In this document: positions 1-29,038 of the stretch, one piece after another
Position numbering within the stretch: position 1 is the first letter of the stretch
Layout: the number at the start of each line of letters is the position of its first letter
Notes under the pieces: model-generated
Seen by the model: only the letters and a program-made list of their open reading frames with translations
Told to the model about the DNA's origin: nothing
Database searches by the model: none
Translations under genes and position numbers: made by a program
Assembly (NCBI GenBank): GCA_903868295.1
Contig: CAIPUQ010000290.1
Span: 1 to 41,593 of the forward strand
Length of the DNA stretch: 41,593 nucleotides
Reading direction: 5' to 3'
Source: an uncultured Roseiflexaceae bacterium
GTDB taxonomy: Bacteria > Chloroflexota > Chloroflexia > Chloroflexales > Roseiflexaceae

Positions 1-183
1 AACTTTGATTTCAACGGTGCCGCATTTGTCGACCACTTTGCACGGCTGCTCAAGGCTGATGCAGCACGGGGTGTATCGTACAACCAAGAATGGCACGCAA
101 TTGCACAATCTGCGACGTTCCGCAAAGCAACCGGGGATGGCATCCTCGAAGTAGATGCTGACGGTCTCCCCAAAAGCTTACAC

Positions 184-3100
184 ATGGACATTCTTATCCC
201 CGGTGATACAAAAACAGGCGCGAGTCGTACCGCAATCCACACAACGTTTTTTGCATATGCACGGACAGGTTTGGCACTGCAAAAGATGCTCAACAATCCG
301 TTGCGCATGGTCAGCCTATGGGTAGGCAGTGATGTACCAACCGTAGGGCTCTGGATCCTTCGGGTGAGCGCGTTGCTCGCGTTAGCCGGGATGAGCTATG
401 TGGTCATCGCATTTCGGCGGCGGTTGATGGCGCCGTTGACCTTTGTCTTTATCGGGGTATTGATCTACCAGCCATTTAGCACAGTGCCGCGTGCATCTGC
501 AGCGACGCAACAAGCCCCCACCCCCATTGCAGTGGCCCAATCCGGCAACACCACACCAGCAGCCCCACAAGTGTTTAATCCCCTGGTTGCCCCGGTACAG
601 CAGTTCGGCGGTATCGTGTTGCCTTCGGCAGGAACGGCAACTGTCGGCGAAAGTACTGCGGCAGTTTTGCCAAATGGTCGCGCGGACTTCACCAGTCGTG
701 CAGCGAACGGTGAGGTCGATACTGATTCAGACAGACTCTCCGATACTGACGAACAGGCACGCCAAACCAGCACCACCAAAAGTGATACCGACAACGATGG
801 GTTGACGGACTACGATGAAGTACAACTCGGTACCAACCCGCTCAGTTCCGACGCAGACAAAGATACCTTGAGCGATAGTGCAGAAATTCAGCTCGGAACC
901 AATCCCAACAGTGCAGATACGGATCTCGACGGCCTGACCGACACCGTCGAAGTAAAGTCTTTCACTCAGTACCCTGGCTCGGTGAACAAGTTCTACAGCA
1001 ACCCGGTGGTCGCAGACACCAATGGTGATGGACTCTATGACGGGCTAGAATGCGTCGAAAAGACTGTCACAAACTCAGCACGCTGTACGGACACCAACGG
1101 AGACGGTGTCCCGAACTTTGTGAGCTTTGACAATGACGGTGATAAAGTCCCAGACCAAGCCGACCTTTCGCCCAACGATGCGAGTGCGATCACGTACACA
1201 GACGCGAACCCGTACGGATTCAAAATCCTCAATACCGCCTTAACGTCCAAACCTCTTACCGTTGACATACAGATTCGTCCTGCCAAAGATGCACTCTTGT
1301 ATGCAAACAATGCCATCTACGATTGGCCGACTGCAGACAAAGACGGCCAAATCCAACGGGGCAAAACAACGACATTTGCCTCAAGCACGGTGTTTAACGC
1401 AACAGACGCAACTGCGAGCAACGGCGACATCAAAGTCACCGCAATGCTCGAAATTCGTATCCCCGTCAGTTCTGGTCAATACGGCAACCTGCCGACCAAA
1501 GCTTGCCCTGCAGATTTGACCAATATCGTGAAGCTCAACCCTGCAGACGCAAACTCGTGTGTAGATACGAGCAAGACGAACCCATACGGCTTGAGCATAG
1601 GATGGAGCCGTGACACACAAGGCAACTCCAAGACAAACGAAGTAACGATCAGCAGTCCACTCAACCCCGATTACGACATCAGCGGATCGATTGTCGCGTA
1701 CTCAACCAAAATGTACTACCAGACTGGCGCACAAGCCTGGACAACGAACCACCAAGTACGGTTGCAATGGCTCGTCTCTTCGATTCAGGACAGTTGCCCG
1801 GCAGACAAAGTCGAGTGTACCGATGCCGAACGCGTCGAGTTTAGCTCCCTCCTGCAAAGTTACTATGGTGATTGGAATCTCGTCGGGATGCAGGCAACGG
1901 AAAATCTCGGTGCCAAAGCAACACTCGTCTACGAAGATGTCACAAAAGCCGAAGTAAATGATGACAGCAAACGCCGCTTGGCAATTACACAATTGGCAAA
2001 TGTAGTCAAAAACAGCTTTGTGGACTTGCCTTTTCTCCAGATAAGCGGAACCGATACCGACAAATCCCTCTCCGTTTTGTTTGACAACACGCGCAACACA
2101 GCCGCTGCTGTCGCCACGACTGCCTATGGCATCAACAAAAGTTCCACTCGGGCATCTACATTTACATACGACACCATGCTCCACATGGTGGCAGTCAATA
2201 CGACCGAAATACCAAAAATTCTGAATGCCTCGCTCTGCCGCAAAAATACGAAAGCCGATGCATGCGCAGAGGCAGCGACGTATCGAGCGGCATGCGAATC
2301 CAAAACCACCATCGAATGTCGCTTGGGTATGGTTATCGCAACCGAAACCACCGAACGTAACGTTTCGTTGTCGTTCAGTGACAATAAACTCGACTTTTTG
2401 AATGAAGACGAAACCATATCACGCACGACCAATGGACTCATGTATCGGGTCAAAGGTGGGCAATGGGTGGCAGTGACTGATTCGGAAGATGTTGCAACCG
2501 AGCTTTCGCTCGTGCAGCAGCAATTTGTGCGTGGCGCTACCCCGACAGCACTGACCGAAAAAGAGTGGAACACCCTCAACCAGACCCTTCTGCTTGCAAC
2601 ATTGACATCGTTTGGTACACCAGTGGCCAAGGGCTACAAAAAATCGCAGATATCAGCAATCCTCGCCGGTGTCACCAAAGCGCGCTTCACCACTGGCATA
2701 AAGACGTTGTGGGGTGACGAAATCACCAACACGTACACCACGTATGCACCATTCATCAATAAGCAGATTATGCAGTTCCGTCTGGCAAGTGTAGCCGGCG
2801 CTTCAAAAATGTCAGACTCTGCGACCAACATTGGAAATAGCTTCGAGGTTGCCGTCTCTGTCATCCCTGCATTAACGGAGGCAGTAGCCGATGTGACTGC
2901 AGGCTTAGCGGACATTTCCCTAAAGAGCAAAGCCAGCATTCTCGTAGCCGCCATCGCGACGTTCAATGCAGCATTTAGCCTCGGAACAACCTTTGACGCG
3001 AGCGGGACTGTAAGCCCGAAGATGCAAGCATTGTTGATTAACAGTGTGAATCTCGTTTTGGCAGTGCGCGAGACGGTCAACGCAGTTAAAGCAGTATCTG

Positions 3101-6100
3101 CTGCAGTGAAGGCAGCGGGCAGTCTGTCGGGCGCAATGACCAAAGCCGCCAGTGTTGCGGCTACCGCGGCCAAAGCAGGAACCGCTGCGAAATTCATGAA
3201 AGTCCTCGGCCCGGTCATGATCGGGCTGGCAATTGCAGCCACCTGGGCAGTCGGGATTATCGCTGCAATCAATGCCGAGTACGGTTGGCAAAAAGGCAAC
3301 GCTATCGCCGGCATGATTGGTCAGACCATTGCGATTCTGTTTGTCCTCGCGCTGACGGCGATACCGGTGGTCGGTCAAATCATTGGTGCGGTCATCGCCG
3401 TCTTGGACGCGCTTGCAGCGATCGCCTGTGCGACGTTGAGCGAAAAAGAACAACGAAGCACTGCGGGCAAATGGCTGTGTGGCGGCATCACAGGCATCCT
3501 GGCGAATTTCTTTACGCCGTATGCTTCGAATATTGTGGTGGACCCAGATGATCCTTGGTCACGGTACATGAAGGTTGATGGCGTCAGCCCCCAAATCAAA
3601 AACCCGTCCGCGGGGTTCAGGGTTGGCAATAGCATGACCAACGGCATCAAGGTAACCGATTACATTGAACGCATGCCGTTCCCCTCAACATGGATGGCAT
3701 TGCCATGGTTTTGGCAATGGAATCGTCAAGATACCCGCGACGCATCGTTCAACTATGCACTCAACCCGGCGCAAATCAACATGAGTGGCAGCATTTCGAC
3801 AGGTAGCCAGCGTGGGCAGTGGACTGCGAACAGCTACTGCGATTCGGCGGTTGAGGGTTGCGAATATTATGTCGACGGAGAAAAAACGTACCAATATCGC
3901 AAATCCGTCACCATCAACTATGATGCGCCGTTTGATAGCAGCGGCATCAATGTGAGCCAACCGGATTTATACCTTTCGACGGCCTACAAAGTACCGCAAC
4001 AGACCTGTTTTCTCCTCTTTATATTTATCGCCGTTATCCCCATTTGTTATATCGAGACACACACCGGCAACCCGAAGTACATCAACATCAATGAAACCTC
4101 CAAAACGAAATACGACATCTTCCCAGCAACGTTCGAAGAGTTTATTGCGTTGCGTGCTGATGCACAAGGATATACGTTTGCCTGGTCACCACTCGATGCA
4201 GTCCCGGCCTTCCCGACCTTCATCGATGCAGACAACGATGGGCTCAGCAATGCCATCGAAGTCACGATGGGCAGCCGCGATAACGCATATGACAGTGATG
4301 CAGATGGTGTGGCTGACAATCGTGAAAAAGCTATCGGTACCCTTGCCGGCAACCCCGACACCGACAATGACGGTTTGACCGACGCCCAAGAAGCGCAGTT
4401 CAAAACAGACCCCGTTGCAGCTGACACCGACGGTGACGGATTGTTGGATGGCGAAGAAGTCGTCCACATGCGCAATGGTGTGGTCACTGGTGGCTGGGAT
4501 GTTGTCTACGCAATCGTCGATGGCGTGCCCAGTATGACCTGGACGGGGTCGGACCCCAACAGTGCCGACGCGGATAACGACGGCATCATCGACCTCCGTG
4601 AGAAAGTCCTCGGCTGGAGTCCCTACGCCAAAAACAGCGGCGAAATCCTGGCGGTCAACGGAGGCCTGCGTGAAGCGCTCGCACCATTGATCCAAGTCGG
4701 CTTTGAACGCCAAGCCACTGGCGCATTTGTGGGCAACGGCAGTGCCGCAACAACCCTGCGTTGTATCGGTACATGCCCAGCAATCAACGCAACTGAGCGC
4801 CGAGGCAACCCCCATTCGGTATTTACTGGCGCACAAGGACTGAGCGCAGGCACAGGCAATCAGTCACTTTTTTCGACCCAATTCACCTTGTCACTCTCAC
4901 TCAAACCGACCGTTGCCGCCTATCAGACACTGTTTAACCAATTCGGGCATGTGGCAGTTCTCCGCACCGCAACTGGTGCTATTCGTGTCATGCTCGAAAC
5001 AACAAACGGCATTGTAGACTTTACCTCCGCCCCTATTGTGCCGATCAACCGCTGGTCACACTTGGCAGTTACCTACGGCGATTCGGCATTGGTCATCTAT
5101 GTCGATGGCGTCGAAGCAACCCGGACGAAGGTAGGCACAATCCTGCGTGACACTGTCGTTTCGGATAGCGAATTGACCATCGGCTCGTACACCCTCAATT
5201 ACGTACCAAAGTTTGTCGGTGGCATCGATGATGTCGCGGTGTATCAGATTGCATTGCGTCCCACCGAAGTCGCGATGCTCAAAAACGGCACATTGCCGAA
5301 CAGTAGCGACTTCGTGGTCCGTCCCGGCGATCGGGTGACCTACAGTGTAAACTCGACCAATAAGCTGCTCGGGCGGAGCATGCAAGGATTGACAACGGTA
5401 ACCGGTACATCAGAGAAAAACGCATACAGCACCGACAAAACCATTGCCATGGGCTTGGCAGCAGCGGCGACATCGTCATTCGATGGCACGTTCGCCGTAC
5501 CGGGATCAGTCAACAACGCAACTAGTCAATCCGTGTACACCAACAGTTGTGTGTTTGCGGATAATCAGCTTTGTGTCAAATTCGACGAAGTTCCCGCTAG
5601 TTATCCGTTTTCGTTTACCGATGTCTCTGCCAACGAAAGCCATTTGACCTGCGCGAGCGCGGTCGCATGTCCACAATACACCGCGAGCGACGGAAGCTGG
5701 CGCTTCACCAGTAATACTGCACTCAGCACTACCCCAGCCGTAGGCAACACCATTAGCTTCCAAGACATGTCGATAGCGCTGTGGGTCCGTCCCGAAGGCC
5801 AGTCAACGGCCACACGCACCATTGTGCAGAGTTCCAACACTGGCGCACCGCTGCAGGTTGCACTCGCACTCGAAAAACCCATCTTTACACTCGGTGGCTC
5901 GACCCTTAGTGCACCAAACGCCTTGCCACTCAACACATGGGCGCACCTTGCCTTTGTGCTCGAAAAACAAAAACGTAGCATTTATGTGAACGGAATATTG
6001 GTTGCCTCCGAAAGCACTCCAGTTGCATACCCAGGCAGCTTTGGCAGCCTGCGCATCGGGCGCGACGCGGCAGCCAATTCGTTTGCCGGTAGCTTACGCG

Positions 6101-9100
6101 ACATCCAGATTCAGAGCCGTTCACTATCAGCTCAACAGCTGCGGATGCTCGCAAACACCTGTGAAGATCCGGCCTTGATGTCGTGTCTCCCCCTTGTTGC
6201 TGCGGACGGCACCACAGACTACAGCACGTATGGTCAGACGCAGAGTGTCTCGGTGAGCGGCGCTGAGGTGAACAACTTCACATCGGCTGCGCAGTACCCG
6301 ACGGGTTTTGCGACGTTGTTGACCAATCATGATTTCACCCTCATCACGAAAGTAAAAATCGCAGCCCTGACGCAGATCATCGCGCAGACGGGGACCGCGG
6401 TGAGTGGTGGCAACCAATTCAAACTCTGGGTGAACAACGGCGTGCCCACACTGACCATGGGGAGTGTCAGCGCAACCACGACGGCCCGGATGGCGGTCGG
6501 CAGTTGGTATGTCATAGCAGCACGGGTCAGCAATGGCACGCTGGCATTGCGGCTGATTACTGCGACGGGCGAAACCTCGGGTGCACAGCGAACTGGCGAT
6601 GCATTGCTCAAGGGGCAAGAACCGTTGACGTTTGGTGCGAGTGCAATGAATCTCGATGCGTTCCGTCTGTATCGCACGGCTGTTTCAGATGCAACGATAT
6701 TGGCTGTTGCACAGTATGCCCTCAACGGCCGTTTGACGGTCGGATTGAATCGCCCGCCAGTGTCCGATCAGATGGACGTGAGTGTCGATGCCCGCCCCAA
6801 AATCATCGTCCCCGATGCAAATTTCGAGCGCATGCCCGATACCTGTAGTGCAATGACTGCCGCCGTCTGTTTGCCGTTCACCTCGGCCAACTATGGATTT
6901 AACGCTTCCTATACGGCATCGGCAACTGCGACACAATCGACGTATTATGGTTTAGGCTTCGTCGCAAGTCATGCAATCGACAATAATGTAGGAACAATTA
7001 CACATACGGGCTTAGTATGGATATTCCCTGAAAACAAGCCCTGGCTCGAAATAGACCTCGGCAGTGTCAAGCCAATCCATACCATACAGGTGTCTAATCG
7101 GACAGACTGTTGTTCAGAACGATTGAATTCTGCCATTGTATTTTTGGGCAACACGAGTTTCGGGCGCGAGAGTGACCTCAATCGCAACGCTGCAAATGCG
7201 GTTGCATGGCGTAGTGTGTTTTGTAACACGGCGAGTTTGAGTTGTAACGGGAGTGCCCCGGTCAGCACGGTCACCTTCCCCGATGGAACGGCAGCACGCT
7301 ACGTCCGTATTCAGTTGCAGGGAATGAATTTTCTCCACGTACGAGAAGTCGCTGTCAACGGGAAATTCTTCTCGTGTGAACAAGACGGGACCTGCCCGAC
7401 TGTATCCAACGGCGGGACCGAATTTGTATCGGGACGCCGCATTGGGATGTCTCAAACATCGTCGAAAACCATTTTTGAAGGTGATAAGAATTTCACCGTG
7501 ATGGGGTGGTTCAAATTCAACAATCCAGCCGCCGAATCATTGATTGTCGGCGACAATGCGGACGTAACCAGTGCATTCAATCGACTCAAAATCGGGGTCA
7601 AATCCAATCGGATGTTCATGTCGTTTGGTGGTTCGTCCGAACAGCTTGGATCAGCCACAGGCACCATCACAGCAAACACGTGGCATCACCTTGCATATGT
7701 GAAAAGTGGTCGCACTACCACCATGTACTTCAACGGCATCGAAGTAGCGAATGCCACTGCCAGCGGCACTGCGAACCTCACCGGGGTCCGGCAGGTGACC
7801 ATTGGAGCAACCAACACGGGTGAAGCGAATCTCAATGGTCTGATGCGGAACTTCGAGATTCACACCGCAGCGCTCACCCCGAGCCAAATCACCACCGTTG
7901 CAGAATCGCCTGTGTATGAGTTGCGCTTTGCACTCGACGAACCAGCTTTGAGTACCACATTTGGCGAAACAACTTCGTCTGCGGTCGCCCTGACCTGCCT
8001 TTCTGCCTGCCCGATGAGTGGAGTGCCAGGCCGCGATGCGACCGCACTCCGTTTCGATGGCACACAAAGCCTCGCTCCCAAAACCAGCGAAACGACACAG
8101 ATGATGTCGTACCTCATGCCGCGGACGACTATACCGTGGTCATGGTCACCTCCCGTTGATTCGCTGTCGTACACCGTCGGCTTGTGGGTCAAACCGACAA
8201 CACACAACAGCTGGCTGATTGGGAATACGTCATCACTCCAGCCACTGCGGCTGGGAATCAATGCAAACGGTGCAGTTACGTTCGAGCGTTCGAAGGAATG
8301 TTGGCAGCAACTTTGGGTATATATTGGGTACACGTGTTACTCATCAACACCGTTGGTGTCAGTGGCAACACTTCCGATCAACACCTGGTCACATGTGGTG
8401 GTGTCGGTGGTGAACGGTAACGAAATGATTTCGGTGAACGGCATCGCAACGACACGGAGCAATGCGCAAACGACGAGTTACCGCGGCGCTTCATTGACCC
8501 AAACAGCTCTGACATTCGGTGAAGGCTTCGTGGGTGAACTCGATGACATCACGATTTCGTCTGTCCCCACCACGTCAGGCAGCGCTGCAACGGCATTGAC
8601 CAAGCAATCACCCAGCTGGAATTTGCGCTTCGAAGAGACACTGAATTCGGAACAAATCACCGTCGCAAACGGGATCACCAAAACGGAGCAAATCGATTCG
8701 GTCGCACTCCCTGATGGTACCTATGGACGGAGTGGCATTCAACGCTACCTGTACGCAGCAAGCTGCAATCTGCCAGAAATCACCGGTGCGCAATGCCCCG
8801 TCGGCGACACCCGTGGTATGGCAGGCGTTGCTGATACCTTCAATGGCCGCAATACGCTGATGACCGTGTCAAATGGTCTCGGCATCACCCAAGATATTGC
8901 CGCCGGCGGTACCTTCCAGCTGATGATCAAGCCGGAACAATTGACCGGGACGCAGACGATTCTGTCCTACGGGAATGCAACCGGCACCGATTCATGGCGC
9001 GTACAGATTGTCGATGGCAAAGTACGCTTTGCGTTGGGAACACGGACGTTTACTGCCAGCAACAAACTCGCACCAGCATGGAATCATGTTGCGTTTAGCT

Positions 9101-15100: not shown

Positions 15101-18100
15101 TTACCAACACGAGTGAAGCAAGCAAAATGACGTTTGCCATGCGCCTTCGGGACGTGTTAGGCAACGAAGGAGTAACCCAACTTCCATCGATATACGTAGA
15201 CACCCCATTAACCCCAGACTATACCGTCGTCGAATCGACTGCGCCGGTGTATCGAGGATTTTTGGGCAATGGGTGTGCAACACTCGGCGAAGATCGTCGT
15301 GCCACAAATCGCGACATCCAACGGTTCGCCATGACCTGGGACACGCAAGCAATCCGCTTGAATTACCAAGGCGCAGACTGGGAATACGATGGTGACCTGT
15401 TTGTCTATCTCGACACCAAGGTCGGCGGGACGGTCAGCAGCTACCGGCCAAGCTCGTACACAAAAACAATCACTGATAGTGTCGCGTTGGGCGAATCGTA
15501 TATCACCCTCCCAGTGAATACCGCAGCGCGCACCATTGCATCATCATCGACACTTGCGTCGTACATCAACACCTTCCAGACGGGGTTAGTAGCGAGTCAA
15601 CGAGGGGTCCGTGCAAACAGCCCGCAAGGTTCGGATTATGTCATCCATGTACAAAATCGTACGGTCGCGCAAATCCTGCGGTGGGACGAGACTGCACGCA
15701 GCTGGATGAATGACGGAGCGGCACCGACTTACCAATTCGTGGATGAATTGGGTATCAAACAAACCGATTTACGCGTTGCATTTGGACAAATCGGATACAC
15801 GACCGGTAATCCATTCGGAGTGATTGCGTACGCGACCGCACCGCAAGGATTTTTGCCATGGGCTACGTTCCCGAGTACCAATCCGATTCGGACCGACCAA
15901 GGGTCTGATTTGATTGCCATCACTCCGATGATCAACGGGTACGGCTGGAGTTCCCTGAACAGTGGCGTTTGTCCAAACACCACGGTAAACAGCCCAGACA
16001 CGACACGTATCAATGCGACACTGCGGAGCACCCCAGGGGGGAGTTACCAGCGTGCAATTGCCGACTCCTATGCAAACACCGAACCAGATGCAATCGTGCA
16101 GATTATCGAAGAAACAGCACAAATCTGTTCCCTTGTGCCGACCAATGGATGGTGCAAACGTGTCGAAGAGTACGCACAAACCAACAGCACGGGTTCTGCT
16201 CTTTTGGATGAGCTATCTAGTGGGTTATTGACCGAGCAATCGCCGGTTGTTGGTGACGGCTCCGTGGTCACCTACACGCTCAGCCTGTCGAACCCGACCA
16301 ACACCCGGTCACGAACCATGTATGCAATTGTCCAAACATATGGTGGTATCTGGTTGACTGAAGGCAACAGCACCGGCGCTGCGCCAATGGCAATCATTGG
16401 TGGTGGGACGTATGACTATCACAGCATCAGTGATCCAACCCTGCGTGACTATCACCTCATCAGAATCAATCCAATCGCTGCGAACTCCAGTTCGACACTC
16501 TCGTTCCGCGGCAGCATCGACCCCAACAAGGCGCAGTCGTCAAGCAGTGATCGTACCAAAACAACAACCATCGCAAAGGTTGAAGTTCGCATAACTGACG
16601 ATGCGACTGCGACTGCAATTAATCGTGCCCGAACGCTCGAGTGGCTGAACGCGGCTGTCGCCATCGATACAGAAGCACCATCAACATTTGCGCCCGATGT
16701 CCAGACGAGCGTGCGGCGCGGAACGACCCGGTTCACAGGCTCGGTCAAAGACATGTCTACCATTCCCTTGGTCGAGTTGCAATACACGACAAATCTACGC
16801 ACAACACCAACACAAATCCAGTGTGGTGCAGCAGTTGTCAGCCGCTGGACTTGTCCCGTTACCATCGCAGCCGGGGTCACGAATGTCTCGTATCGTCTGC
16901 GTGCAAGTGATGCATACGGCCAACAGAGCGATTGGACTGCCTGGTATGGCTCGACGGTCGATGATCAGGCACCGTCGTTCAATTTTGATGCGCAAACAGA
17001 CGCTATGGTGAATGCAGCATATGTCGGCGGCACCACCATTGCCATCAATGGATTTATCACTGACACGCTCAGCACCGCAACGGTTCGCGTCTGCGACGAA
17101 AGTCTCGGTACGTGTGCTGATGCTTCAAGCGCAACCATCACACCGTCGACTCTTGCCCCAATTGTCACATCTGCTTCTCCAAATCAGATTGTGAACGCAG
17201 CACCATGCGCAACCACAGACTTCAGCGAATACGACACCATGGAGATTTCACAGACGAGTGCAGGCAGTACCGATCGTATCGCCAGCCTGAGTGTCGCGGT
17301 CAATGCAACCAGCGTAGCTGTTGAGACCCTCAACCTGTGGCTGCAGTCACCCTCCGGCACGATTGTCCCGCTACTCACGTCCCGCCGTTCAGCAGGTACC
17401 AACCTGCGTGCGGTGTTCGGCGATGAACACATTGCCACCACGGACATACTGACAGGGACAATCGAAATGGCCTCAGACCCCATCTCCGTCCATCCAGATG
17501 GTCAGCTCAGCACATTGATCGGGGAACCCGTCAATGGCGTGTGGAACTTAATCGCCTGCGACCAGGTCGGCGACAGTATCCAATCCACCGTTGCTGATTG
17601 GGCTATTTCGTTCATCCCGGCAGCACCATTCACGAGCACCAACACACCATGGAACTACACACTCCAAAAGACTGCCAACATTGATAACGCACTCCGCGTG
17701 CTCAACATTCGCGGCATTGACGCATCAAGCAACTCGAGCACGACACGTTCGTTGACGCTACGGATCGACACCCGTGCACCAAGTCTCATGGTTACGCAAC
17801 GGGCCACCACAATCCTCAAGGGGACGAGCGCCATCTTGTTTGATGGAACAGTCAACGAAGGGGGAACGCTCCGTTCACTCTCCGCGAACATCTATGACGC
17901 GACGAGTCTTGTTGCAACCGAGTTGATACCGGTGGTAGAGGATGAAAGTACGGAACTTGACCGCCTTTCATTCCTGCATGGCAAAGCCATTCGTACCGCA
18001 TCGTGGGAGCTGCCATTTGACACGGCAACGCTCAGTACCGGCACCTACAAGATCCAGTTCATCGCCATCGATGTGGCAGGCAACCAGACAACAAGTGATG

Positions 18101-19374: not shown

Positions 19375-19378
19375 GGAG
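19373..19378 (+). promoter_or_regulatory. Shine-Dalgarno (AAGGAG) for ORF B, overlapping the ORF A stop codon
   Basis: gggaaaTAAGGAGcgccgctATG: AAGGAG lies 7 nt upstream of ATG 19386 and overlaps TAA 19372-19374. This implies co-transcription and coupled translation of the two giant ORFs. Confidence 0.65.
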
Positions 19379-19385
19379 CGCCGCT

Positions 19386-19472
19386 ATGAAGAAATCATTA
19401 CTTTTTTCTCACATCATGCTCGTCCTGACCCTCTGCGCGACCACCCTGCTACGCCCAGCACCAGTCTCGGCT
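19386..19472 (+). other. Sec-type signal peptide of ORF B
   Basis: MKKSLLFSHIMLVLTLCATTLLRPAPVSA/APAG: KK n-region, hydrophobic core and a V-S-A cleavage motif. Confidence 0.75.
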
Positions 19473-22400
19473 GCTCCCGCAGGGACCACCGGTGCTCAAC
19501 TGGCGAACGGCAGGAGCGGCAGACTGGCGATGCCAGCGGTCGGACTGTGGTTCAATGCATCCGGAGGCCAATTAGCCGACGGATCTGACGGGATGCGCTT
19601 TGTGTTCCACTGCGCCGATGGCAACGGCGAACAAGTCTGGTTCACCAACGCAGTCAACTATTTCAGTGGTGCGTGTTCAGCAACAGGTTTGAACGTCAAA
19701 ATCGGCGGCACCAATGTGGGATCTCGAGGAATCGACTGGACGTCCAAGACTATTCGCGTCATCAATGGTTCTGCATCGCTGACCGAGTCAGGATCCGGCA
19801 GTGGGTACGCGATTATCGATTACACTGCGACCGTTGGGGGTTACACCTACAACATCGAACGCGAGATAACATACATCTTTCCGAATCAATTTTTCACCGA
19901 GAAATACACCGTTACCGTTCCTGCATCGGCACCGACGCAAACAATAACCATCACCAAAGGTGGCGATACAATGCCCGGGGGGTTCGATCTTGGTGTCGGC
20001 GCGTCGGTCAATCTGCCATTCAAAACGGTGTATTCGATCGAGGAGACTGCACGCAAAATTCTCGGTTTCCGAGAAGGCGTTGCAGGCACATTATCAAACA
20101 TTTATGCAGGTCCATACGGGTCTGCGAACGCGCTTGCAGCGACAAATGATGCGTTTGCATCGGGCATAACGGCAGCATCACACGACACCGGCCTCGTCGC
20201 ACAGTTTGTGATTCCGCACACCACGACCAACGTGTCGCGCTTGTATTCCCGTACATTGCAGACCATTACCTCGTTCCAATCCTTGAGTTTGCAGGCACAG
20301 TTCGGCGAAGCACTCGTTTACAGCAGTACAACGTTGACGTTATTGCTTTCCAATTATTGGTCGAGTTCCGCAAGTAACGCATCTGCGATTCAATTTCGCT
20401 TCAACTTACCTTCCCCGCTCAAAGTCAGTGGTGCGCACAGCTCGACATGCAGCGGAGCGAGTATTACAGCAAACACAGGATCAAACAACATCAACGTTTC
20501 CAATGCCAGTTTGAGTTTTCTGACCACGTGTCAGATTCAAGTACCGGTAGCAATGCCGAGTGCCGGAGTAATCAATCTGAGTAGTTCGCTTGTGTCAAAC
20601 ATGAGTTCCACTGGAGCAGTATTGGTCAACAACGTGGCGGCGTCGTCAACAGATTTCAACTTTGGTCTGCCGACCAACACACGGACGCCGTACCCGACAA
20701 ACACACCGCTTCCCACCGATACGGCTACTGCCACCCACACGGCAACAAACACTCCGACTGCAACACACACTCCGACATCCACCTATACCCATACCCCTAC
20801 CGCGACGTACACACCGACATACACATACACCCCGACCAATACACCGACCAACACCAACACACCGGTAATCAGTCTATCGACGCCTGAAATCCCTGTTCGT
20901 GGCCAGAGTGGACCGGTCTTTGGGTGGGGAGCACCTGCGCCGTACAAACTCAATGCAATCCCAGCAGTTGCCAATAGTGGGATAACCAATCTCGCACTCG
21001 GCGCGCATCATGCACTCGCCGTTACGTCTGCAGGGGCGGTTATTGGCTGGGGTACGAACATCAATGGGGAGCTTACCATCCCGCGCCTCACCGGCGTCGT
21101 ACAGGTTGCAGTGGGAACAGCCCACAGTGCTGCGCTCAAGAGCGATGGTTCGGTCGTGCTATGGGGCCAGCCATCTGCTCGTACTGCACCGGTTGGCGGC
21201 CGTTTGACCAACATCGCCCAAATGGCAACGGGTAATCAACACACGGTCCTGTTGGGCAACGACGGCAAAGTCTTTGTCTACGGAGACCCCACGCAGCGGT
21301 CCGCTGTACCAGACTTCACCGGCAAAACGATTGTTTCCATTGCAGCAGGCTCTGATAGCTCATTTGCCCTCGGCAGTGATGGAGCACTCTACCGATGGGG
21401 TAAGTCCATCGTCATCCCCGCCCGTGTCTCAGGCAGCGTCCAACGCATCTATGCCAGTGGGACTTTGTATGGCGCATTGCGGAGTGACGGCGAGCTCGTG
21501 GTGTTTGGACCCGGCGTCGCTGCACTCAATCCAACCGACAGCGCAACCAAAATCAGTGCATCGACCGCCGGTTGCCCATGCCTCGTCATCCCATCCATGG
21601 AACGACTCCAGTCGCTGAGCCAGACCAAATGGGGTCTGCTGCTGAGCCGTGCGAATCGCCCGGCTCGCGCATACAGTAATACCGGTGCTCGTATACCAGC
21701 GAACATCCCCGTTGCGTACCATGCACTGATTGGGTCACCGAGTCACAATTATGCACTCGGGATTGCCCTGCCTGACGCACCGACGTCTGTTCCTACTCGC
21801 GACACGACGTTCCGCTTGCCAATCCGCACTGCGCCCAAATACCAAACTGCGGGATACCTTTCCATTTGGGGTGCAGATCCACGCTTCACAAATATCCCCC
21901 CAGCTGCCGAGGACACACTCTTTCAAGTCGTCAGCGGAGCGCGCCACGTCAGTGTGTTGCGCACCGATGGTGCTGTTCTGGCCTGGGGCGACAATCAATA
22001 TGGGCAGTCTTCGGTTCCACCCAGTCTGTCACAGGCCCGCGCAATAACCGACACCTTTCGCATCGTTGCACTCGCTGCCGGCACGAACCACACACTCGCA
22101 TTGCGGGCAAATGGAGCCGTCGTCGGCTGGGGCAACAACGATGCTGGCCAGTTGTCCATCCCGTCTGAATGGACGCTAGGGAATCCATCTGCCACCCCGA
22201 CCATGACGCCTGTGACGACGAATACCGAAACGCCGACAATCACCGATACGGCAATCCCCGGTGTATCGACCGAAACAGCAACCAAAACACTCACATCGAC
22301 GCGCACATTGACCGCGAGTCGAAGCAGAACTCCGACCCTTTCGCGTAGCCCAACAACAACCGCATCAGGCGAAACGTCGCGCATCATCCAAGTTGCAGCA

Positions 22401-25400
22401 GGAGCGCGCCATTCTGTCGCACTGCTCAGTAACGGTGCGGTCCAGACATGGGGCGATAACACCTTCGAGCAACTCGTCCAACCACCGATGAGTGCTGTCG
22501 TCAAAATAGCCGCTGGCGCATGGCACACACTTGCATTGCGGAGCAATGGCACCGTCATCGCATGGGGACGCAATCACGTCAATCAAATTGAAGTGGGTGC
22601 GTATACTGATGTCATTGATATTGCTGCAGGCGGAGACACATCTGTCCTCATGCTCAGAAGTGGACAAGTGATTGTTATTGGTGACACCGCCGAAAACCAG
22701 GGTGCTACACCCGCACAGCCAGTCCAATCCATTGCAGTCGGTGAGTCTCATCTGCTTGCGCTCACACGAGATGGCGAAATTCTCGGATGGGGATTGAATG
22801 CAGATCAACAGCTGAACCTCCCAAGCGACTATGCGAACGCATTCCAGATTTCTGCCGGCGCGACATTTAGTGCAATGCTCGCACGGGCGCGTACCGTGCC
22901 AACCCCGACGCTCCCAGCAATGACCGAGACTGCGGTGCCGCTGCCCGTGTTACCGACTGCAGCGCCACGACTTGCCAGTGGAGAGCAGGCAATCATCATC
23001 CGCGATGGGTCTGCAACGACACGTTCGACCCTACCCGTGAGTGCTGTCGAACTCTCTGCCGGTATGGATGTCGTGCTCAACGCCACCGGTACGTTGTCGA
23101 CAACGACACAGACTGACGCAACCCCTGGTGCACCGCCGCAAGATTGGGACACGAGTAGCGTTCACTCGGTTGCGCTCGGCACCGTTGGGGTCATGCTCTA
23201 CCAAAATCGCACCGTGAAAGCGTGGCAGCGGTGTGGAGACGAAGTGTCGTGCGTGAGCACCCCAGCAACTGATATCACCTCCGAAATTCCAGCTTCATTC
23301 CTGAGCAACGTTGCCGAAATCTCGGTACGCGGCCCGCATATGCTTATTCAAACACTCGATGGACGAGTATGGTCCAATCTCCTCACGCTCCCTGTGCTTA
23401 CTGACACCAAACACATCGCAGCCGGGCGGGATTTCGCTACAATTCTGCGCGCTGACGGCACCATCCGTGTATTTGCAAACAGTAGCGAAGAAGGGGTACA
23501 AAACATCCCAGCGGCCCTCAACACCATTATCGAAATCGCTGCAGGCGATTATCACGTCATGGCACTCCAAGCAAATGGTCGGTTGGTCAGTTGGGGAGCG
23601 GATGTCAATGATGTCCATCAAACAGACATCCCAGCATTCGCAACGCAAAACATCATCGCAATCGCAGCAGGAGAACGCCATAGCCTGGCGCTCAATGCCG
23701 CGGGAGTTGCATTCGCCTGGGGCGACTACACACGTCCAAACTTGAATGCCCTGGCAGGCATCAATAGTACCTATCGCATCACTGATATTCATACCGGAGG
23801 GGGAGCACTCGGCCTGCAAGTCGCCCCGCGCAACGCAGGACAACCCTCAGTCACACGGGTTCCAACCGTGACTGCAGTTGCACTCCCCACCATGACCAAC
23901 GTTTCACGCATATCGGGATTCACCGATAATCAAATCGCCTGGTACAGCATGTCAAATATCGTCTCAGCAACGACATTTGCCAGTCGTGGTTCGGCAACGA
24001 CGTACCGTTGCCCAGATCCAGCCAACTGCCCATCGGTCGCTGACCTCATCGGGCCAGACGCGCCGCCAGACGGCAGACTCTTTCCCGCGCTGACCTTTGT
24101 CGACGCACACGGCGATGAACTCTTTTCGAACACCAATGTCAATATTTCCGGTTCTGTATTCACAGCCCGAGCAAGCCTCAAGCGCACCAACGCAGACCGC
24201 CATGATGTGATGTTGAGTCTGGGTAGCGCTGGTTCCGTCCGACGCTACTTCGTGCTCGGGGTAGACAAAGAAAACCGGCCGTATTGCAGTTTTTATGGCG
24301 ATGACTTGGTCAGCGCCACCACATACCGCGACCGCTCATGGCATGACTACGCATGCAGTTTCGACCCTGTGTCGCGTATCCGGACGCTCTGGCGTGATGG
24401 ATCCATCATCGGCCAAGATGTTGTTCTCAATCCAGTGGCCATCCCTGCAGCGCCGCTCACGATCGGCAGACGCATCGATACGATGGAAGGTCTGGACGGT
24501 CAGCTTGGTGAAATTTCTGTCGTCAAACGGATACTGACCACAGCAGAGATGCAAAACCTCACCCCGGTCGCCCCTTCCGAGTACACGGCCGACGTGTTCA
24601 TTCGGACAACGATGCAGTCAGATTCACCAAATAAGGGTTCTGTTTCCTGTGACAACCGCATCGACGGGTCCACGTCGGTCTGTCCGTTCTTTCAAAACGA
24701 TGATCAATCACGTAACGGGACCTATGCTGCCTTCAACGGCGAAGCACTGCTCACCATTCCAGCCCAGCGCACCAGCGATGGATTCAGTCTGGGCATGTGG
24801 ACGAACATCGTGGCGTACAGCGGCGGAACTCCCATGATTGCGCGCCGTGATGCGTCAGGTGCAGGGATGGTTATCGAACAACGCTACGATGACGACGGTT
24901 ATCCAACGATGAGCTGTGCATGGGTTCCCAATCCAGCAAACCAAGAACTAACACAACGACTTTCGTTTGTGACATCGAGCGAAGACAGCCTGTGGCATCA
25001 TTACCTGTGTAGTTATGACGATGCGACTACCACCCTCTCGTTCTATACCGATGGTATTCTCAGAGGCTCACAGACGGTCCCGGCCAAAACCATCTTGGGG
25101 CCAATCACCATCGGTTCGACAACCGGGTCAGATGGTACCTCCAGCGATGCGTATATGGGGCTCGTTGACGATGTGATGCTCTACGACAAAGCACTCGATA
25201 CGCACGAAGTGGTACGTATCATGAATGCAACATCACGGACAACCTACGCGACACCGACTCCTACCGCTTGCCCACAAACCTACGATGGAGCAACCAATCT
25301 GCCTCTGACCGGCATGTCGGTTGCTCAGATTTCGGACCAGTGGGGCGCGTACACCGCAGATCGTGCTATCGATGGGATTACAACCGACACGCTCCCGAAC

Positions 25401-26288
25401 GATGAGGGATATACCTCAGGTGTTGCAATTACCAATGCGAATATGAACGCATGGTGGAAGATTGATCTTGGCCAGCAATACGAAATCGCAAACATCATAT
25501 TGTTCGATTTGACCGACCCAACGCTCCGAACCAATCTGAGCGATGCAATTGTGCTGATTAGTGATGTGGATTTTGGGGCGTCGGGCGAAATCGAATGGAT
25601 GAAGTCGCAGGCGATTGCGTGGAAGTACATCAAGTGCAACGACACAATTGGATGCGGCATTCCCGGATCACACAGCGATGCATCATACACCGTCAGTTTC
25701 CCCCAGGGGATCAAGGGTCGCTATATCCGCGTGCAGCATGAGGAAAGGTACGGCCAACTCAGTATCAACGAACTCCTCATCGATGCGTGGCGCACATCGT
25801 CTGCATGTACGACCGCAGTACCCAGCGCCACGATGACCATCACACGAACCGCATCAGTAACGGGTACGGCAGTGGCAACGCGCACGCCGCTCCCCAATAC
25901 ACAAACACCAACGATGCCCGGGATTACCCCATTTACCGCGACCCGAACCCTCACCCCAACGCCAACCAATAGTCGCACGCATACGGCCACCCGCACTGAG
26001 ACAATTACTCTCACGCCGACATTGCCCACCAGCACGCCGTTCCGTAGCCCGACACGAACCAATACCTCAACCCGCACCCCGCTCTACACAACCAGGACCA
26101 TGTTGGCACGTCGTAGCCCGACGTTCTATGCCCAAACTCTGACCGCCACACGATTAATGGTCGCCCAGACCCAAACCGCTGTAGCACGGACCATTACCGC
26201 GATTGCGGCCTTTACACCGACTGCGACAGTAGCATACCCGTTACCGCCAACGGCAACCCGCGTACCTACTGGCTACCCGACCCCATAA
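19386..26288 (+). CDS. Giant secreted protein (2,300 aa): Sec signal, unknown N-domain, three RCC1-type propellers, two LamG domains, F-type-lectin/discoidin-like domain, Thr/Pro-rich linkers and tail
   Basis: Uninterrupted 6.9-kb ORF with a good SD, an N-terminal signal peptide and domain motifs read from the translation (see sub-features). Stop is TAA 26286-26288, followed by a strong terminator. Confidence 0.93.
   Translation: [2300 protein letters not shown]
20670..20864 (+). repeat. Thr/Pro-rich low-complexity linker 1 (in-frame coding repeat)
   Basis: [65 protein letters not shown], encoded by imperfect ACN-CCN-ACN codon-level repeats. Confidence 0.85.
20910..21776 (+). other. RCC1-type propeller A (ORF B)
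   Basis: GPVFGWG (closure strand); [128 protein letters not shown]. Two degenerate blades follow. Confidence 0.75.
21852..22172 (+). other. RCC1 closure strand plus blades 1-2 of propeller B (ORF B)
   Basis: [75 protein letters not shown]. Confidence 0.7.
22173..22382 (+). repeat. Thr/Ser/Pro-rich low-complexity linker 2, inserted between RCC1 blades
   Basis: [70 protein letters not shown]. Confidence 0.8.
22383..22886 (+). other. RCC1 blades 3-7 of propeller B (ORF B)
   Basis: [135 protein letters not shown] (a half blade that would pair with GYLSIWG). Confidence 0.75.
23154..23825 (+). other. RCC1-like propeller C, partly degenerate (ORF B)
   Basis: [107 protein letters not shown]. Confidence 0.6.
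23910..25228 (+). other. Two LamG/ConA-like domains (ORF B)
   Basis: First domain: [10 protein letters not shown]...[10 protein letters not shown]...WHDYACSF...LWRDGSIIG...LTIGRR...[18 protein letters not shown]. Second domain: [15 protein letters not shown]...AAFNGEALL...WHHYLCSYD...FYTDGILRG...ITIGST...[19 protein letters not shown]. Confidence 0.7.
25314..25790 (+). other. F-type-lectin / discoidin-like domain with degenerate sugar-binding motif (ORF B)
   Basis: [11 protein letters not shown]...[40 protein letters not shown]...[25 protein letters not shown]. The framework matches ORF A 6940..7362, but N-R-x-D-C-C-x-x-R-L is replaced by [12 protein letters not shown] (25503..25538). Confidence 0.6.
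25809..26285 (+). repeat. Thr/Pro/Arg-rich low-complexity C-terminal tail of ORF B
   Basis: ...[74 protein letters not shown]...[13 protein letters not shown]. No terminal hydrophobic anchor or recognisable sorting motif. Confidence 0.8.
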
Positions 26289-26302
26289 GCGACGTACGCC
26301 CA

Positions 26303-26348
26303 CCCAGTTGCGAATCGTGTTGATTCGCAACTGGGTGTTTCTTTTTCC
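26303..26348 (+). terminator. Rho-independent terminator closing the giant-gene pair
   Basis: Perfect 14-bp stem CCCAGTTGCGAATC (26303-26316) / GATTCGCAACTGGG (26322-26335), 5-nt loop GTGTT, then TGTTTCTTTTTCC. It starts 15 nt after the ORF B stop. Confidence 0.8.
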
Positions 26349-26403: not shown

Positions 26404-27930
26404 ATGACACCAGTACTCGAAGTACGCAATCTGACCAAACGGTTCCCCGAGATTGTGGCAAACGACGCAGTGAGTTTCACCCTCGAACCCGGCGAAATCC
26501 ACGCATTCCTCGGCGAAAACGGTGCCGGCAAATCGACCTTGATGAATATGCTCTATGGGATGTACCGCCCCGACGACGGTGAAATACTGCTCAACGGGAG
26601 TGTCGTACAACTGAATGGCGCAAACGACGCCATTCGCCGTGGGTTAGGCATGGTTCATCAACACTTCATGCTCGTGCCGACGCTGACCGTGACCGAAAAC
26701 ATCATCCTCGGCAATGAAGTAACCAAAAACGGGACGCTTGACCTTGTCAAAGCTGGTACCGATATTGCTGCATTGGCCAAAACATATGGGCTCGACATCC
26801 CGGTGCACACCCTCGTCCAAGACCTCCCAGTCGGAGTGCAACAGCGGGTCGAAATTGTCAAAGCCCTCTATCGTGGTGCAGACATCCTGATCCTCGACGA
26901 ACCGACTGCGGTGCTCACGCCCCAAGAAGCGGACGATTTATTTGTGGTCATCCGTCGTCTCAAGGAACAGGGCAAATCCATTATCTTCATCAGTCACAAG
27001 CTCCGTGAAGTGATTGCCTTGGCAGACCGCATCAGTGTGCTCCGACGCGGCAAACTCGTCGGTTCTACGACGCCGTCACAAGCCACCGAAGCGACGCTTG
27101 CGGGCATGATGGTGGGCCGTGATGTCGTCTTGCATATCAACAAAACACCCGCAACGCCAGGTGCAATCATGCTCGCGGTCACTGACCTGACGGTTTCCGA
27201 TGATCGTGGGAACGTCGCAGTCGACCATGTGTCTTTTTCGGTGCGCGCAGGTGAAATCGTCGGGATAGCTGGTGTCCAAGGGAACGGACAAACCGAACTC
27301 GTCGAAGCAATCACCGGCCTGACCATCCCACGCTCCGGTACCATTACCCTCCACAACGAAGAACTCAGTGGACGCGGCACCAACGTCGCAATATCTGCAG
27401 GTATGGGCCACATCCCCGAAGATCGTCATCACCATGGGTTGGTGTTGAGTTATTCGATCGCAGACAACATGGTCCTGTCTACCTATGACCTCGAGCCGTT
27501 TTCGCACAATTATGTCATCAACAAAGACGCCATTGATGCCCAAGCGACCACCCTGGTACGCAACTTCGATGTGCGAACGCCCAGTATCGAAGCCCTCGCT
27601 TCGACCCTGTCGGGCGGTAACCAGCAAAAAGTCGTCGTCGCGCGTGAACTCGCGCGGCCGCTCAAGCTCCTTGTCGCCGCACAACCCACCCGCGGCCTCG
27701 ATGTCGGGTCCATTGAATTCATTCACACCCAGATCGTGGCACAGCGCAATAGCGGCAGTGCAGTTTTGCTCGTATCGGCAGAACTCGACGAAATCCTTTC
27801 GTTGGCCGATCGCATCTTGGTCATGTTCCATGGTCGCATCATCGCCGACATCCCGAGCGCTGACGCACACCGCAACACCATAGGGTTGCTGATGGCAGGC
27901 GTCACGGCGACACAAGAGGTACCCGCATGA
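26404..27930 (+). CDS. ABC transporter ATP-binding protein, fused double-NBD, BMP/nucleoside (CUT2-like) importer type
   Basis: NBD1: Walker A GENGAGKST, Walker B ILILDEPT. NBD2: GVQGNGQTEL, LSGGNQQK, LLVAAQPTRGLDVG. Start chosen at ATG 26404 (GGAG 7 nt upstream). The track's TTG 26308 lies inside the terminator hairpin. ATG 26371 and 26392 are alternatives. Confidence 0.92.
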   Translation: MTPVLEVRNLTKRFPEIVANDAVSFTLEPGEIHAFLGENGAGKSTLMNMLYGMYRPDDGEILLNGSVVQLNGANDAIRRGLGMVHQHFMLVPTLTVTENIILGNEVTKNGTLDLVKAGTDIAALAKTYGLDIPVHTLVQDLPVGVQQRVEIVKALYRGADILILDEPTAVLTPQEADDLFVVIRRLKEQGKSIIFISHKLREVIALADRISVLRRGKLVGSTTPSQATEATLAGMMVGRDVVLHINKTPATPGAIMLAVTDLTVSDDRGNVAVDHVSFSVRAGEIVGIAGVQGNGQTELVEAITGLTIPRSGTITLHNEELSGRGTNVAISAGMGHIPEDRHHHGLVLSYSIADNMVLSTYDLEPFSHNYVINKDAIDAQATTLVRNFDVRTPSIEALASTLSGGNQQKVVVARELARPLKLLVAAQPTRGLDVGSIEFIHTQIVAQRNSGSAVLLVSAELDEILSLADRILVMFHGRIIADIPSADAHRNTIGLLMAGVTATQEVPA

Positions 27931-29027: not shown

Positions 29028-29038
29028 GAGCGCTTGAG

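Follow-up and report, generated by a model that had tools for sequence, protein, structure and literature searches.

What do two adjacent giant genes of an uncultured bacterium encode, do they belong together, and are they of a kind that has been described before? We addressed these questions for a stretch of 41,593 nucleotides from an uncultured Roseiflexaceae bacterium (contig CAIPUQ010000290.1 of assembly GCA_903868295.1; referred to as the window), in which two giant open reading frames (ORFs), ORF A and ORF B, follow one another on the forward (+) strand. An earlier note, made from this sequence alone, had read the pair as an undescribed cell-surface system consisting of an anchored scaffold and a soluble partner. 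Judging from the comparison with its homologues, ORF A belongs to an extensive family of giant proteins, which is found almost exclusively in Chloroflexota, occurs in several copies per genome, and is defined by an N-terminal membrane module. ORF A and ORF B together are a conserved two-gene unit. We think it rather likely that the pair encodes an anchored giant multi-lectin adhesin or fibre and its co-expressed secreted partner, which would serve in multivalent adhesion.

We found that both ORFs behave as intact genes. ORF A (1..19374) is open in frame 1 from base 1 and runs through 6,457 codons without a stop to the TAA at 19372-19374. It is collinear with its orthologue in locus L008, to which it is ~93% identical across 3,995 aa. 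ORF B (19386..26288) encodes a predicted secreted partner of 2,300 aa and has orthologues in the protein clusters P0121-P0124, of which P0121 is 100% identical to it. In loci L001 and L002, the orthologues of ORF A are 84% and 81-82% identical in the C-terminal part that was compared, and those of ORF B are 90% and 82% identical. The ratio of nonsynonymous to synonymous substitution rates (dN/dS) was 0.09-0.12 for ORF A (against L008 and L001) and 0.10-0.12 for ORF B (against L001 and L002). Both frames stay open in the orthologues of these three independent assemblies (L001, L002, and L008). A dN/dS of ~0.1 against three independent assemblies indicates that the ORFs are genes under selection and not an artefact, in agreement with the claim of two real giant genes in the earlier note.

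The beginning of ORF A lies outside the window. Its first residue in the window is equivalent to residue 157 in L008, where the orthologue starts with a helix of the signal or anchor type, and all homologues reach ~157-193 aa further upstream of this residue. We therefore placed ~156 N-terminal residues beyond the left window edge, which gives a full-length ORF A of ~6,613 aa. The ATG at position 184 was rejected as the start of ORF A because the homologues and the 94%-identical L008 orthologue run 156 aa further upstream.

The two genes are separated by 11 nt. Direct reading of the junction at 19372..19388 gave TAAGGAGCGCCGCTATG, in which the GGAG Shine-Dalgarno sequence of B overlaps the stop codon of A (TAAGGAG). 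A hairpin scan identified a single strong terminator, located after B: an intrinsic terminator at 26301..26347 formed by a 17-bp GC-rich stem (26301-26337) and a T-run, TTTCTTTTT. Within ORF A we counted 24 terminator-like matches, all with stems of at most 9 pairs, against 21.3 +/- 5 expected from shuffled sequence, and by the same comparison no terminator stood out between A and B. Both the overlapping junction and the lone convincing terminator had been noted before, and both held. The 11-nt gap, the TAAGGAG overlap, the lack of an outstanding terminator between the genes, and the strong terminator after B suggest that A and B are co-expressed and perhaps co-translated.

We then examined the arrangement of these genes in relatives, which the earlier note had named as a test of its proposal. 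B-type proteins were found to be rare, with four clusters among 5.8 billion proteins and four more metagenome loci. Wherever the upstream side was present, B was located next to the C-terminus of an A-type protein that ends in an RCC1 propeller (6/6 assessable cases). L001 and L002 have the A C-terminus upstream of B with the same gap of 11 nt as in the window. In L003, a 6,767-aa A-type ORF, whose last 3,316 aa are collinear with A residues 3087-6443 at 39% identity, is followed after 9 nt by a B' protein that is 29% identical to B. The A' C-terminus of L009 is 48% identical to that of A and is followed after 11 nt by a B' of 2,342 aa. In L090, the A' C-terminus (46% identical) and B' (40% identical) are also 11 nt apart, and the same three ABC genes come next as in the window. 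The TAAGGAG(C) junction is kept in L001-L003, while the L009 junction reads TAAGGAAC. Adjacency of A and B in relatives was thus borne out in six lineages, with a gap of 9-11 nt and down to 29-46% identity, and the pair can be regarded, on the basis of this synteny, as a conserved two-gene unit.

Some loci contain a second A-like giant gene after B, forming an A-B-A array (L003:15670-25004, L009:8342-20897, and the L014/L041 contig CAZMWB010000018.1). The frame of the second A-like copy in L003 is broken near 18653/18924. Between B' and the next A-like gene, L041 has a GH116 glycosidase gene on the other strand; it was rejected as part of the A-B locus because it is not conserved beyond L041.

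The N-terminal ~1,550 aa of ORF A are, as far as alignments and database searches indicate, a conserved and previously undescribed module. The first positions of the window (1..330) encode the C-terminal ~100 aa of a LolA/LprG-like extracytoplasmic domain. We modelled this domain with AlphaFold2 (AF2) on residues 1-330 of the 47%-identical homologue P0001 (predicted local distance difference test score, pLDDT, of 76; alignment A5 includes window 1-510). In a Foldseek search against the PDB, the model matched LprG (3mh8_A, E 8e-6, prob 1.0) as well as LolA, LppX, and RseB, which suggests that the N-terminal ectodomain has a LolA-like lipid- or lipoprotein-binding half-barrel fold. It is followed by a predicted transmembrane (TM) hairpin at 334..480 (aa 112-137 and 142-160, with an RRR loop between them), which was detected by Kyte-Doolittle hydropathy, is helical in model m58e4d2974db2, and is common to all homologues. 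A first block of TSP3 repeats of the calcium-binding type (aa ~220-400, 658..1200; PF18884 TSP3_bac and partial NCBIfam CglD/MtsD matches) leads to the family-defining conserved region (aa 400-890, 1198..2670). This region is composed of a beta-rich domain and then an alpha/beta domain (AF2 pLDDT 75-93), and carries an invariant DWP..D..GQ..R in alignments A1-A3.

The second half of the module starts with a variable helical segment (aa ~893-1060, 2677..3180), which is poorly conserved among homologues and modelled by AF2 as long helices with pLDDT <50. Next comes a predicted four-helix membrane bundle (aa 1062-1170, 3184..3510) with the motif W-x-C-G-G-I-x-G, supported by Kyte-Doolittle hydropathy, AF2, and the consensus of the homologues. 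The bundle helices in the AF2 model span residues 1062-1091, 1095-1119, 1124-1145, and 1154-1170, and the Kyte-Doolittle peaks lie at 1066-1090 and 1110-1128. The module ends with a conserved beta-sandwich with Cys pairs (aa 1174-1384, 3520..4152; AF2 strands with pLDDT 60-80) and a second TSP3 block (aa ~1405-1540, 4213..4620), which matched PF18884, in part CglD, and a biofilm-associated surface protein (7c7r, E 9e-4). The earlier note had listed several TM-like segments in ORF A. The hairpin and the bundle were retained, but the hydrophobic stretch 1335-1353 is flanked by Cys1336 and Cys1349, has a Cys..Cys loop at the same position in homologues, and is better described as a Cys-bounded beta-hairpin, and the segment 980-998 falls in the low-confidence helical region.

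Searches of Pfam, NCBIfam, and PDB sequences matched nothing in the first ~1,550 aa of ORF A other than the TSP3 repeats, and the PDB sequence search with aa 1-1600 returned only TSP3-type noise. The NCBIfam matches of the TSP3 parts to CglD, MtsD, and BamM were partial and far under the cut-offs, and do not denote membership. The AF2 model of aa 400-1460 had a mean pLDDT of 65 and found nothing below E 0.1 in the PDB with Foldseek. Beta-pore-forming toxins and ZP-N were rejected as relatives of this region as chance matches (Foldseek probability <=0.08).

To define the family, we searched for homologues with ORF A aa 1-1,500 as the query. This search uncovered collinear homologues in metagenome-assembled genomes (MAGs) of Chloroflexota, and one more match labelled Ilumatobacteraceae. 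The homologues share two conserved blocks, block 1 (aa 2-675) and block 2 (aa 1065-1560), and the window is 22-61% identical to 12 homologues over aa 400-700. We then scanned 185,579 species genomes (GTDB) for the pattern of block 1b, which comprises the beta and alpha/beta domains with DWP..D..GQ..R, using alignment A2 as the seed, and found 87 relatives. The 80 loci listed belong to Chloroflexota or unclassified MAGs, except for a few bins labelled Klebsiella or Singulisphaera, and among them the relatives are carried by Roseiflexaceae, Herpetosiphonaceae, Anaerolineae, Ardenticatenaceae, Caldilineaceae, and Promineifilaceae. The closest relatives among the loci listed are from a Roseiflexaceae MAG (94%) and 'Chloroflexi Tous12m-chloro-G3' (93%). 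Single MAGs contain up to 5-6 copies. In nearly every locus, block 1b lies ~520-640 aa from the start of an ORF that is >4,000 aa long and runs past the end of the examined DNA.

An exhaustive profile search of 1.84 billion representative proteins yielded 1,048 clusters with a cut-off of E<=1e-3 and 558 with one of E<=1e-30. Proteins of 3,000-7,141 aa are numerous among these clusters and have block 1b at the same position. A word-indexed homology search with the block-1b profile retrieved six short fragments only, none from a named cultured organism. The source names of the homologues were 'hypothetical protein' or 'TSP3 repeat-containing protein' throughout. ORF A and its orthologue in L008 together have all features of the family: block 1b; the anchor, LolA-like ectodomain, and basic-loop hairpin; and block 2, consisting of the helical membrane bundle with W-x-C-G-G-I-x-G, the Cys-containing beta-sandwich, and the second TSP3 block.

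Several family copies, 34-70% identical to the window, occur in loci labelled Singulisphaera sp. (L011, L030, and L067) and uncultured Klebsiella sp. (L014, L032, L039, and L041), and these bins are probably mislabelled or contaminated. In a Chloroflexales MAG (L006:10001-19199), an A-like gene was called as three consecutive ORFs of 852, 549, and 1,506+ aa. In L007 (10001-15027), a 1,421-aa protein stops within block 2, and the gene after it is Pam3_Gp34-like (phage-type). The breaks in L006 and L007 may be frameshifts, assembly errors, or truly truncated or disrupted copies.

From hydropathy and the AF2 models we infer a topology in which the signal or anchor helix is followed by the LolA-like domain outside the cell and then by the TM hairpin with its RRR loop inside. 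The next ~900 aa would be outside and would be followed by the four membrane helices of the bundle, after which the remaining ~5,300 aa would again be outside. Each predicted membrane-helix cluster of ORF A has an even number of helices by hydropathy and AF2. ORF A contains 62 Cys residues, mostly in pairs 1-12 residues apart, which fits an oxidising, extracellular location. The TSP3 repeats also speak for a place outside the cell.

The distal part of ORF A was found to be an array of different domains. At least eight divergent LamG / ConA-like jelly rolls (PF13385, PF02210, and PF00054) occupy aa ~1619-4066 (4855..12198), and short Cys loops or closely spaced Cys pairs lie ahead of them. No internal repeats were detected in ORF A by self-BLAST at E<1e-6. 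An F-type-lectin / discoidin domain at aa 2310-2441 (6928..7323) scored 50.7 bits with PF22633 (cut-off 27.8) and 36.4 bits with PF00754. It contains H2335-x31-R-T-D-C-C-S-E-R2374. The fucose-binding motif, which we take from eel agglutinin to be H-x(~26)-R-x-D-x4-R/K plus vicinal Cys, has a His spacing of ~26 as compared with 31 here. The R-T-D-C-C-S-E-R part resembles the canonical F-type-lectin hallmark, and the domain is a putative fucose binder. A vicinal Cys-Cys pair at aa 2370/2371 (nt ~7108-7113) lies inside this motif, and another one is found at aa 6358/6359 (nt ~19072-19077), just past the RCC1 propeller in the conserved C-terminal region of ORF A.

Further downstream, ~1,660 aa (aa ~4100-5760, 12298..17280) have no confident family match, with sub-threshold matches to Big_3_3 (weakly Ig-like) only, and the PDB sequence search with aa 4001-5800 gave no match. 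This region is collinear with the L003 orthologue at 39% identity. It is followed by a P-domain-like (galactose-binding-like) module at aa 5763-5870 (17287..17610), which is marginal (PF01483 with 22-24 bits, cut-off 21). An RCC1-like beta-propeller at aa ~6124-6352 (18370..19056; PF13540, PF25390, and PF00415, with an RCC1_2 score of 113-125 bits) and a conserved C-terminal beta domain precede the stop. The C-terminus is conserved in L001, L002, L003, L009, and L090, with 38-84% identity among orthologues.

ORF B shares part of this domain vocabulary. A Sec-type signal peptide is encoded at 19386..19472 and conserved in orthologues, with cleavage predicted by eye after V-S-A29. By Kyte-Doolittle hydropathy, aa 4-22 are the only hydrophobic segment of the protein, which agrees with the previous description of a signal peptide without an anchor. 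RCC1-like repeats span ~940 aa (aa 508-1449, 20907..23732; PF13540 in 10 stretches with an RCC1_2 score of 272 bits, and PF25390 in 4 stretches), leaving room for two or three propellers. The closest PDB sequence match of this region is BLIP-II (1jtd_B, E 2e-29), a secreted protein-binding propeller. Two LamG_3 jelly rolls with Cys loops ahead of them (aa ~1560-1942, 24063..25211; PF13385 in 2 stretches) form the best-conserved part among B orthologues, including DKENRPYC and WHNYACSF. A discoidin / F5-8C domain follows at aa 1981-2122 (25326..25751; PF00754 and PF22633, the latter with 30.8 bits against a cut-off of 27.8). Its PDB match to an F-type lectin, Sm-hPAF (3le0, E 2.5e-4), is weak, and a motif scan showed that the fucose-binding motif is absent from it.

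The two ends of ORF B differ in conservation. Its N-terminal ~450 aa (window 19386-20900) are swapped among orthologues while the RCC1-LamG core is kept. The window has DUF7933 in this orthologue-variable region (aa 307-410, 20304..20615; PF25564); at the same position L009 (705-2300) has Gly_rich_2 and LamG_3, and P0124 is without the region. The Thr/Pro/Arg-rich C-terminal tail (25773..26285), identified in an alignment of six B orthologues, ends in ...MLARRSPTFYAQTLTAT...AYPLP...PTGYPTP. Its consensus, TRTPL..T(R/Q)TML(A/V)RRSPT.YA.T(L/M)TA...QTQTA...AYP(L/I)P...(T/A)(G/A)YP(T/I)P, is located at or near the C-terminus in L001, L002, L003, L009, L041, and L090, and among the 87 loci examined it was found in B-type proteins only. 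The tail may be a wall-association or glycosylation signal. By BLAST, only the RCC1 and discoidin segments of A and B align (31-47% identity), and we therefore rejected the idea that A and B are recent paralogues or that B is a recent duplicate of the C-terminal part of A.

We scanned both proteins with Pfam, reporting every family with E<=0.01. These scans agree with the LamG_3, TSP3, F5/8-C, and RCC1 calls of the earlier note, and the P-domain call is supported marginally. The Cys loop ahead of the LamG jelly rolls was likewise recognized in both proteins, as PF13385 matches with closely spaced Cys pairs. The shared F-type-lectin/discoidin vocabulary held in part: A and B both match F5_F8_type_C(_2), but the fucose motif occurs in A only. 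LVIVD, which had also been named, gave no match, and neither did RTX, HemolysinCabind, DUF11, toxin, Rhs, PT-TG, peptidase, nuclease, or glycoside-hydrolase families. No C-terminal hydrophobic segment was found in A (which ends in ...SSSTPSGK) or B (...PTGYPTP), and the LPXTG features of sortase substrates were absent.

The orthologous loci also contain a candidate regulator. In L008, an 838-aa gene (388-2904, minus strand) is divergent from A and lies 345 bp upstream of it. Its product is a P-loop STAND-type NTPase with AAA_22/AAA_16 and MalT-like TPRs. L034, L013, L012, L022, L016, L017, and L014 have STAND-TPR homologues (23-78% identity) that are likewise upstream of an A-like gene and divergent from it, with an AT-rich spacer of ~350 bp in between. 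By orthology, this gene would lie just left of window base 1, where it is a candidate dedicated regulator. The previous statement that no accessory or regulatory genes accompany the pair is thus correct within the window, but orthologous loci carry a regulator-like gene just beyond the position of its left edge.

The genes downstream of B appear from their Pfam matches to be housekeeping genes: an ABC importer set, a CNNM/CorC protein, two phytoene-desaturase-like genes around a WD40 protein, miaA, and a MazG-like gene. The ABC importer set directly 3' of B (window 26404-30283) is composed of a fused double ATPase and two BPD_transp_2 permeases. No substrate-binding-protein gene is located beside it in the window, and the same arrangement is found 3' of B in L002 and L090. 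We rejected this transporter as a dedicated exporter since its permeases are importer-type (BPD_transp_2) and it is a position-conserved housekeeping set. The amine-oxidase / phytoene-desaturase-like genes at 31738-33147 and 36187-37689 flank a 991-aa protein (33168-36143) with a C-terminal WD40 propeller and a weak kinase-like match in its N-terminal 400 aa. Three ORFs are without a Pfam match: 37752-38255 (+, 167 aa), 38498-39121 (-, 207 aa), and 40176-41027 (+, 283 aa). Since a MazG-domain ORF (40338-41504) on the opposite strand overlaps the third of these, only one of the two is likely real. The GC content is even over the whole window (0.52-0.57) and no tRNA genes were found in it; neither of these checks points to a mobile island.

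The explanation that we favor is that the host, a planktonic freshwater filamentous member of the Roseiflexaceae, would produce A and B as a co-expressed unit. The N-terminal ~1,550 aa of A would form an anchor in the cytoplasmic membrane of a cell probably lacking an outer membrane, and the remaining ~5,000 aa would project outward as a Ca2+-stiffened string of domains. Along this string there would be at least eight ConA/LamG jelly rolls, one canonical-looking lectin of the F-type (fucose-type), spacers of the Ig-like and P-domain kinds, and an RCC1 propeller at the distal end. B would be exported by Sec with its two or three RCC1 propellers, two LamG domains, discoidin domain, and Thr/Pro-rich tail, and would most likely remain on the surface, either as an accessory part of the A fibre or at its tip. 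Particles, algae, prey, or sister filaments that bear glycans could be among the partners bound, and expression would probably be controlled by the divergent STAND-TPR protein. Several points weigh against this explanation. The TM topology of A rests on hydropathy and on AF2 models of medium confidence (pLDDT 65 and 76), and if the second cluster had three helices instead of four, the long C-terminal part would be cytoplasmic. Pfam and PDB sequence searches leave ~1,660 aa of A without an assignable fold. The LamG, discoidin, and RCC1 folds also bind proteins, so that 'lectin' is a guess for all domains except the F-type domain of A. The N-terminal third of B is not conserved among orthologues, and the STAND-TPR gene is seen in orthologous loci, outside the window. 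We regard as rather doubtful a more far-reaching version, in which the N-terminal module (its LolA/LprG-like ectodomain, its membrane helices, seven by prediction, and the three conserved ectodomains that match no PDB structure) would be a so far unrecognised, self-contained device that inserts, anchors, and perhaps exports giant polypeptides across the single-membrane Chloroflexota envelope. In this version A and B would build a two-component grappling-hook-like fibre, with B as a distal or lateral binder and the STAND-TPR protein as the switch.

Other explanations place the two proteins in different roles. A and B could be independent neighbouring adhesins in a tandem giant-gene array, each acting alone. 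The A-B-A arrays in L003, L009, and the L014/L041 contig, the several A paralogues in each genome, and the variable N-terminal region of B are in line with this. However, the gap of 9-11 nt is kept from 90% to 29% identity, the Shine-Dalgarno sequence overlaps the A stop where the junction was read, and B occurs only downstream of A orthologues with an RCC1-ending C-terminus in the assessable cases, which makes independence a minority view for us, at perhaps one chance in several. Somewhat less probable still is that the pair does not bind external ligands as an adhesin but has a structural role in the envelope, as a sheath, an S-layer-like coat, or a cement between the cells of the filament. 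This would suit filamentous hosts such as these Chloroflexota, whose envelope is atypical and probably monoderm, and a family that is spread over the phylum in multiple copies. The LolA/LprG-like domain hints at contact with lipids or glycolipids of the envelope, and the Thr/Pro-rich tail of B might be glycosylated and serve as a wall-spanning linker. On the other hand, coat proteins are usually abundant, compact, and self-assembling, and the C-terminal arrays that vary among paralogues and the lectin motif fit ligand recognition better.

Two further possibilities are of very low probability. In a polymorphic-toxin or contact-dependent competition system, which we disfavor strongly, the C-terminal part of A would be an effector that A delivers, with B or a neighbour acting as the accessory or immunity protein. 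Giant size, N-terminal anchoring, and tandem arrays are also possible in such loci, but the C-terminus of A is a conserved RCC1 propeller with a beta domain and not polymorphic among orthologues, the Pfam scans of A and B found no toxin, Rhs, PT-TG, or protease/nuclease domain, and no small immunity-like gene comes next to A, which is followed by B and then the ABC importer set. Least credible, and close to negligible, is the explanation that errors of assembly or annotation produced the long ORFs, or that these are decaying pseudogenes. The source is a metagenome assembly, and split ORFs occur in relatives (the three pieces in L006 and the frame break in the second copy of L003). Against this, no stop interrupts 6,457 + 2,300 codons, both ORFs are unbroken in separate assemblies of other samples with dN/dS of ~0.1, and the L003 and L090 orthologues are collinear.

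We compared the pair with known giant surface proteins. The grappling-hook proteins GhpA (Aureispira, 5,898 aa) and GhlA (Litorilinea aerophila, within the Chloroflexota; 6,596 aa) are of similar size, and GhlA is N-terminally anchored and forms 180-nm grappling-hook-like surface filaments on Litorilinea (bioRxiv 10.1101/2025.08.19.671072). Dozens of consecutive DUF11 / Ig-like beads and an oligomeric filament with a hook-shaped tip characterise this class. They share with ORF A the ~6,000-6,600 aa size class and an N-terminal hydrophobic anchor, and the host of GhlA also belongs to the Chloroflexota. In GhpA/GhlA a single polypeptide spans a long surface filament and binds with its distal end, as would be the case for ORF A. 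In contrast, GhlA consists of ~49 near-identical DUF11/Ig-like beads with one N-terminal TM helix, whereas ORF A has no DUF11 match and no repeats by BLAST, a multi-TM module of ~1,550 aa, and a mixture of LamG, lectin, and RCC1 domains. For GhlA no partner gene has been described, while A is paired with B. By analogy, GhlA may be the closest functional precedent for ORF A, yet without a common architecture.

RTX adhesins secreted by type I secretion systems (T1SS), such as LapA, SiiE, and Marinomonas MpIBP, are megadalton, Ca2+-dependent, extended proteins with extender domains and distal sugar- or protein-binding modules. They are secreted C-terminally via a dedicated T1SS in diderm bacteria and held by an N-terminal plug. 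They share with ORF A the giant, extended, calcium-type architecture with distal binding modules, but A and B have no RTX repeat and the predicted anchor of A is its own TM helices. No T1SS genes (ABC exporter, membrane fusion protein, or TolC-like) were found in the window, where the adjacent ABC genes are importer-type. The defining features of RTX/T1SS adhesins, sortase-anchored adhesins, and polymorphic toxins were lacking, and these classes were rejected for A and B. The Myxococcus proteins CglD and MtsD (NF033765 and NF047639), which have roles in surface adhesion, gliding, or cohesion, contain TSP3 blocks as ORF A does. Their matches to ORF A are confined to the TSP3 repeats (E 6e-10 to 6e-11, 37-41 bits against a cut-off of 400), and CglD differs as a ~1,100-aa lipoprotein with a VWA domain.

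Consecutive giant genes have been described in Apilactobacillus kunkeei, where the tandem genes Giant1-5 encode extracellular proteins of 3,000-8,000 aa and Giant4-5 co-diverge (PMC12863079). Giant1-5 resemble A-B in being consecutive giant surface-protein genes, but differ in their Firmicute host, N-terminal beta-solenoid binding domains, unrelated domain vocabulary, and lack of a multi-TM anchor module. LamG_3-rich 'huge proteins' from proteome surveys (PMC11573180) and giant proteins of Omnitrophota (bioRxiv 10.1101/2023.11.21.568195) are like ORF A in exceeding 5,000 aa and having Laminin_G_3, multiple TM helices, and divergent domains of unknown function, while they come from other phyla (Archaea and Omnitrophota) and have other architectures. 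Term searches of these two papers gave no mention of the N-terminal module or of the A-B pairing. No characterised family with the architecture of A or B was found among homologue names, and the literature covers giant proteins only generically.

The claim of an undescribed system can therefore be kept in a narrower form, in which A does not stand alone but belongs to a large multi-copy family. The undescribed elements are the N-terminal membrane module, the phylum-wide family that it defines, and the conserved A-B unit. The overall kind, giant bacterial surface adhesins or fibres, is already known, and present evidence does not point to a categorically new mechanism.

The cell surface of Chloroflexota is poorly known, and whether it has one or two membranes is debated. 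GhlA, reported in 2025, was the first giant surface filament protein of the phylum (bioRxiv 10.1101/2025.08.19.671072). Our results indicate that many Chloroflexota invest heavily in one family of 3,000-7,000-aa proteins, with several paralogues per genome and at least 12-20 kb per copy. The locus yields a definition of this family, a conserved partner gene, and a candidate regulator, and it offers tractable parts in the F-type lectin domain, the LolA-like lipid-binding-type domain, and the A-B junction. If A and B do form adhesion or capture fibres, they would be relevant to the attachment of abundant freshwater Roseiflexaceae to particles, algae, or prey.

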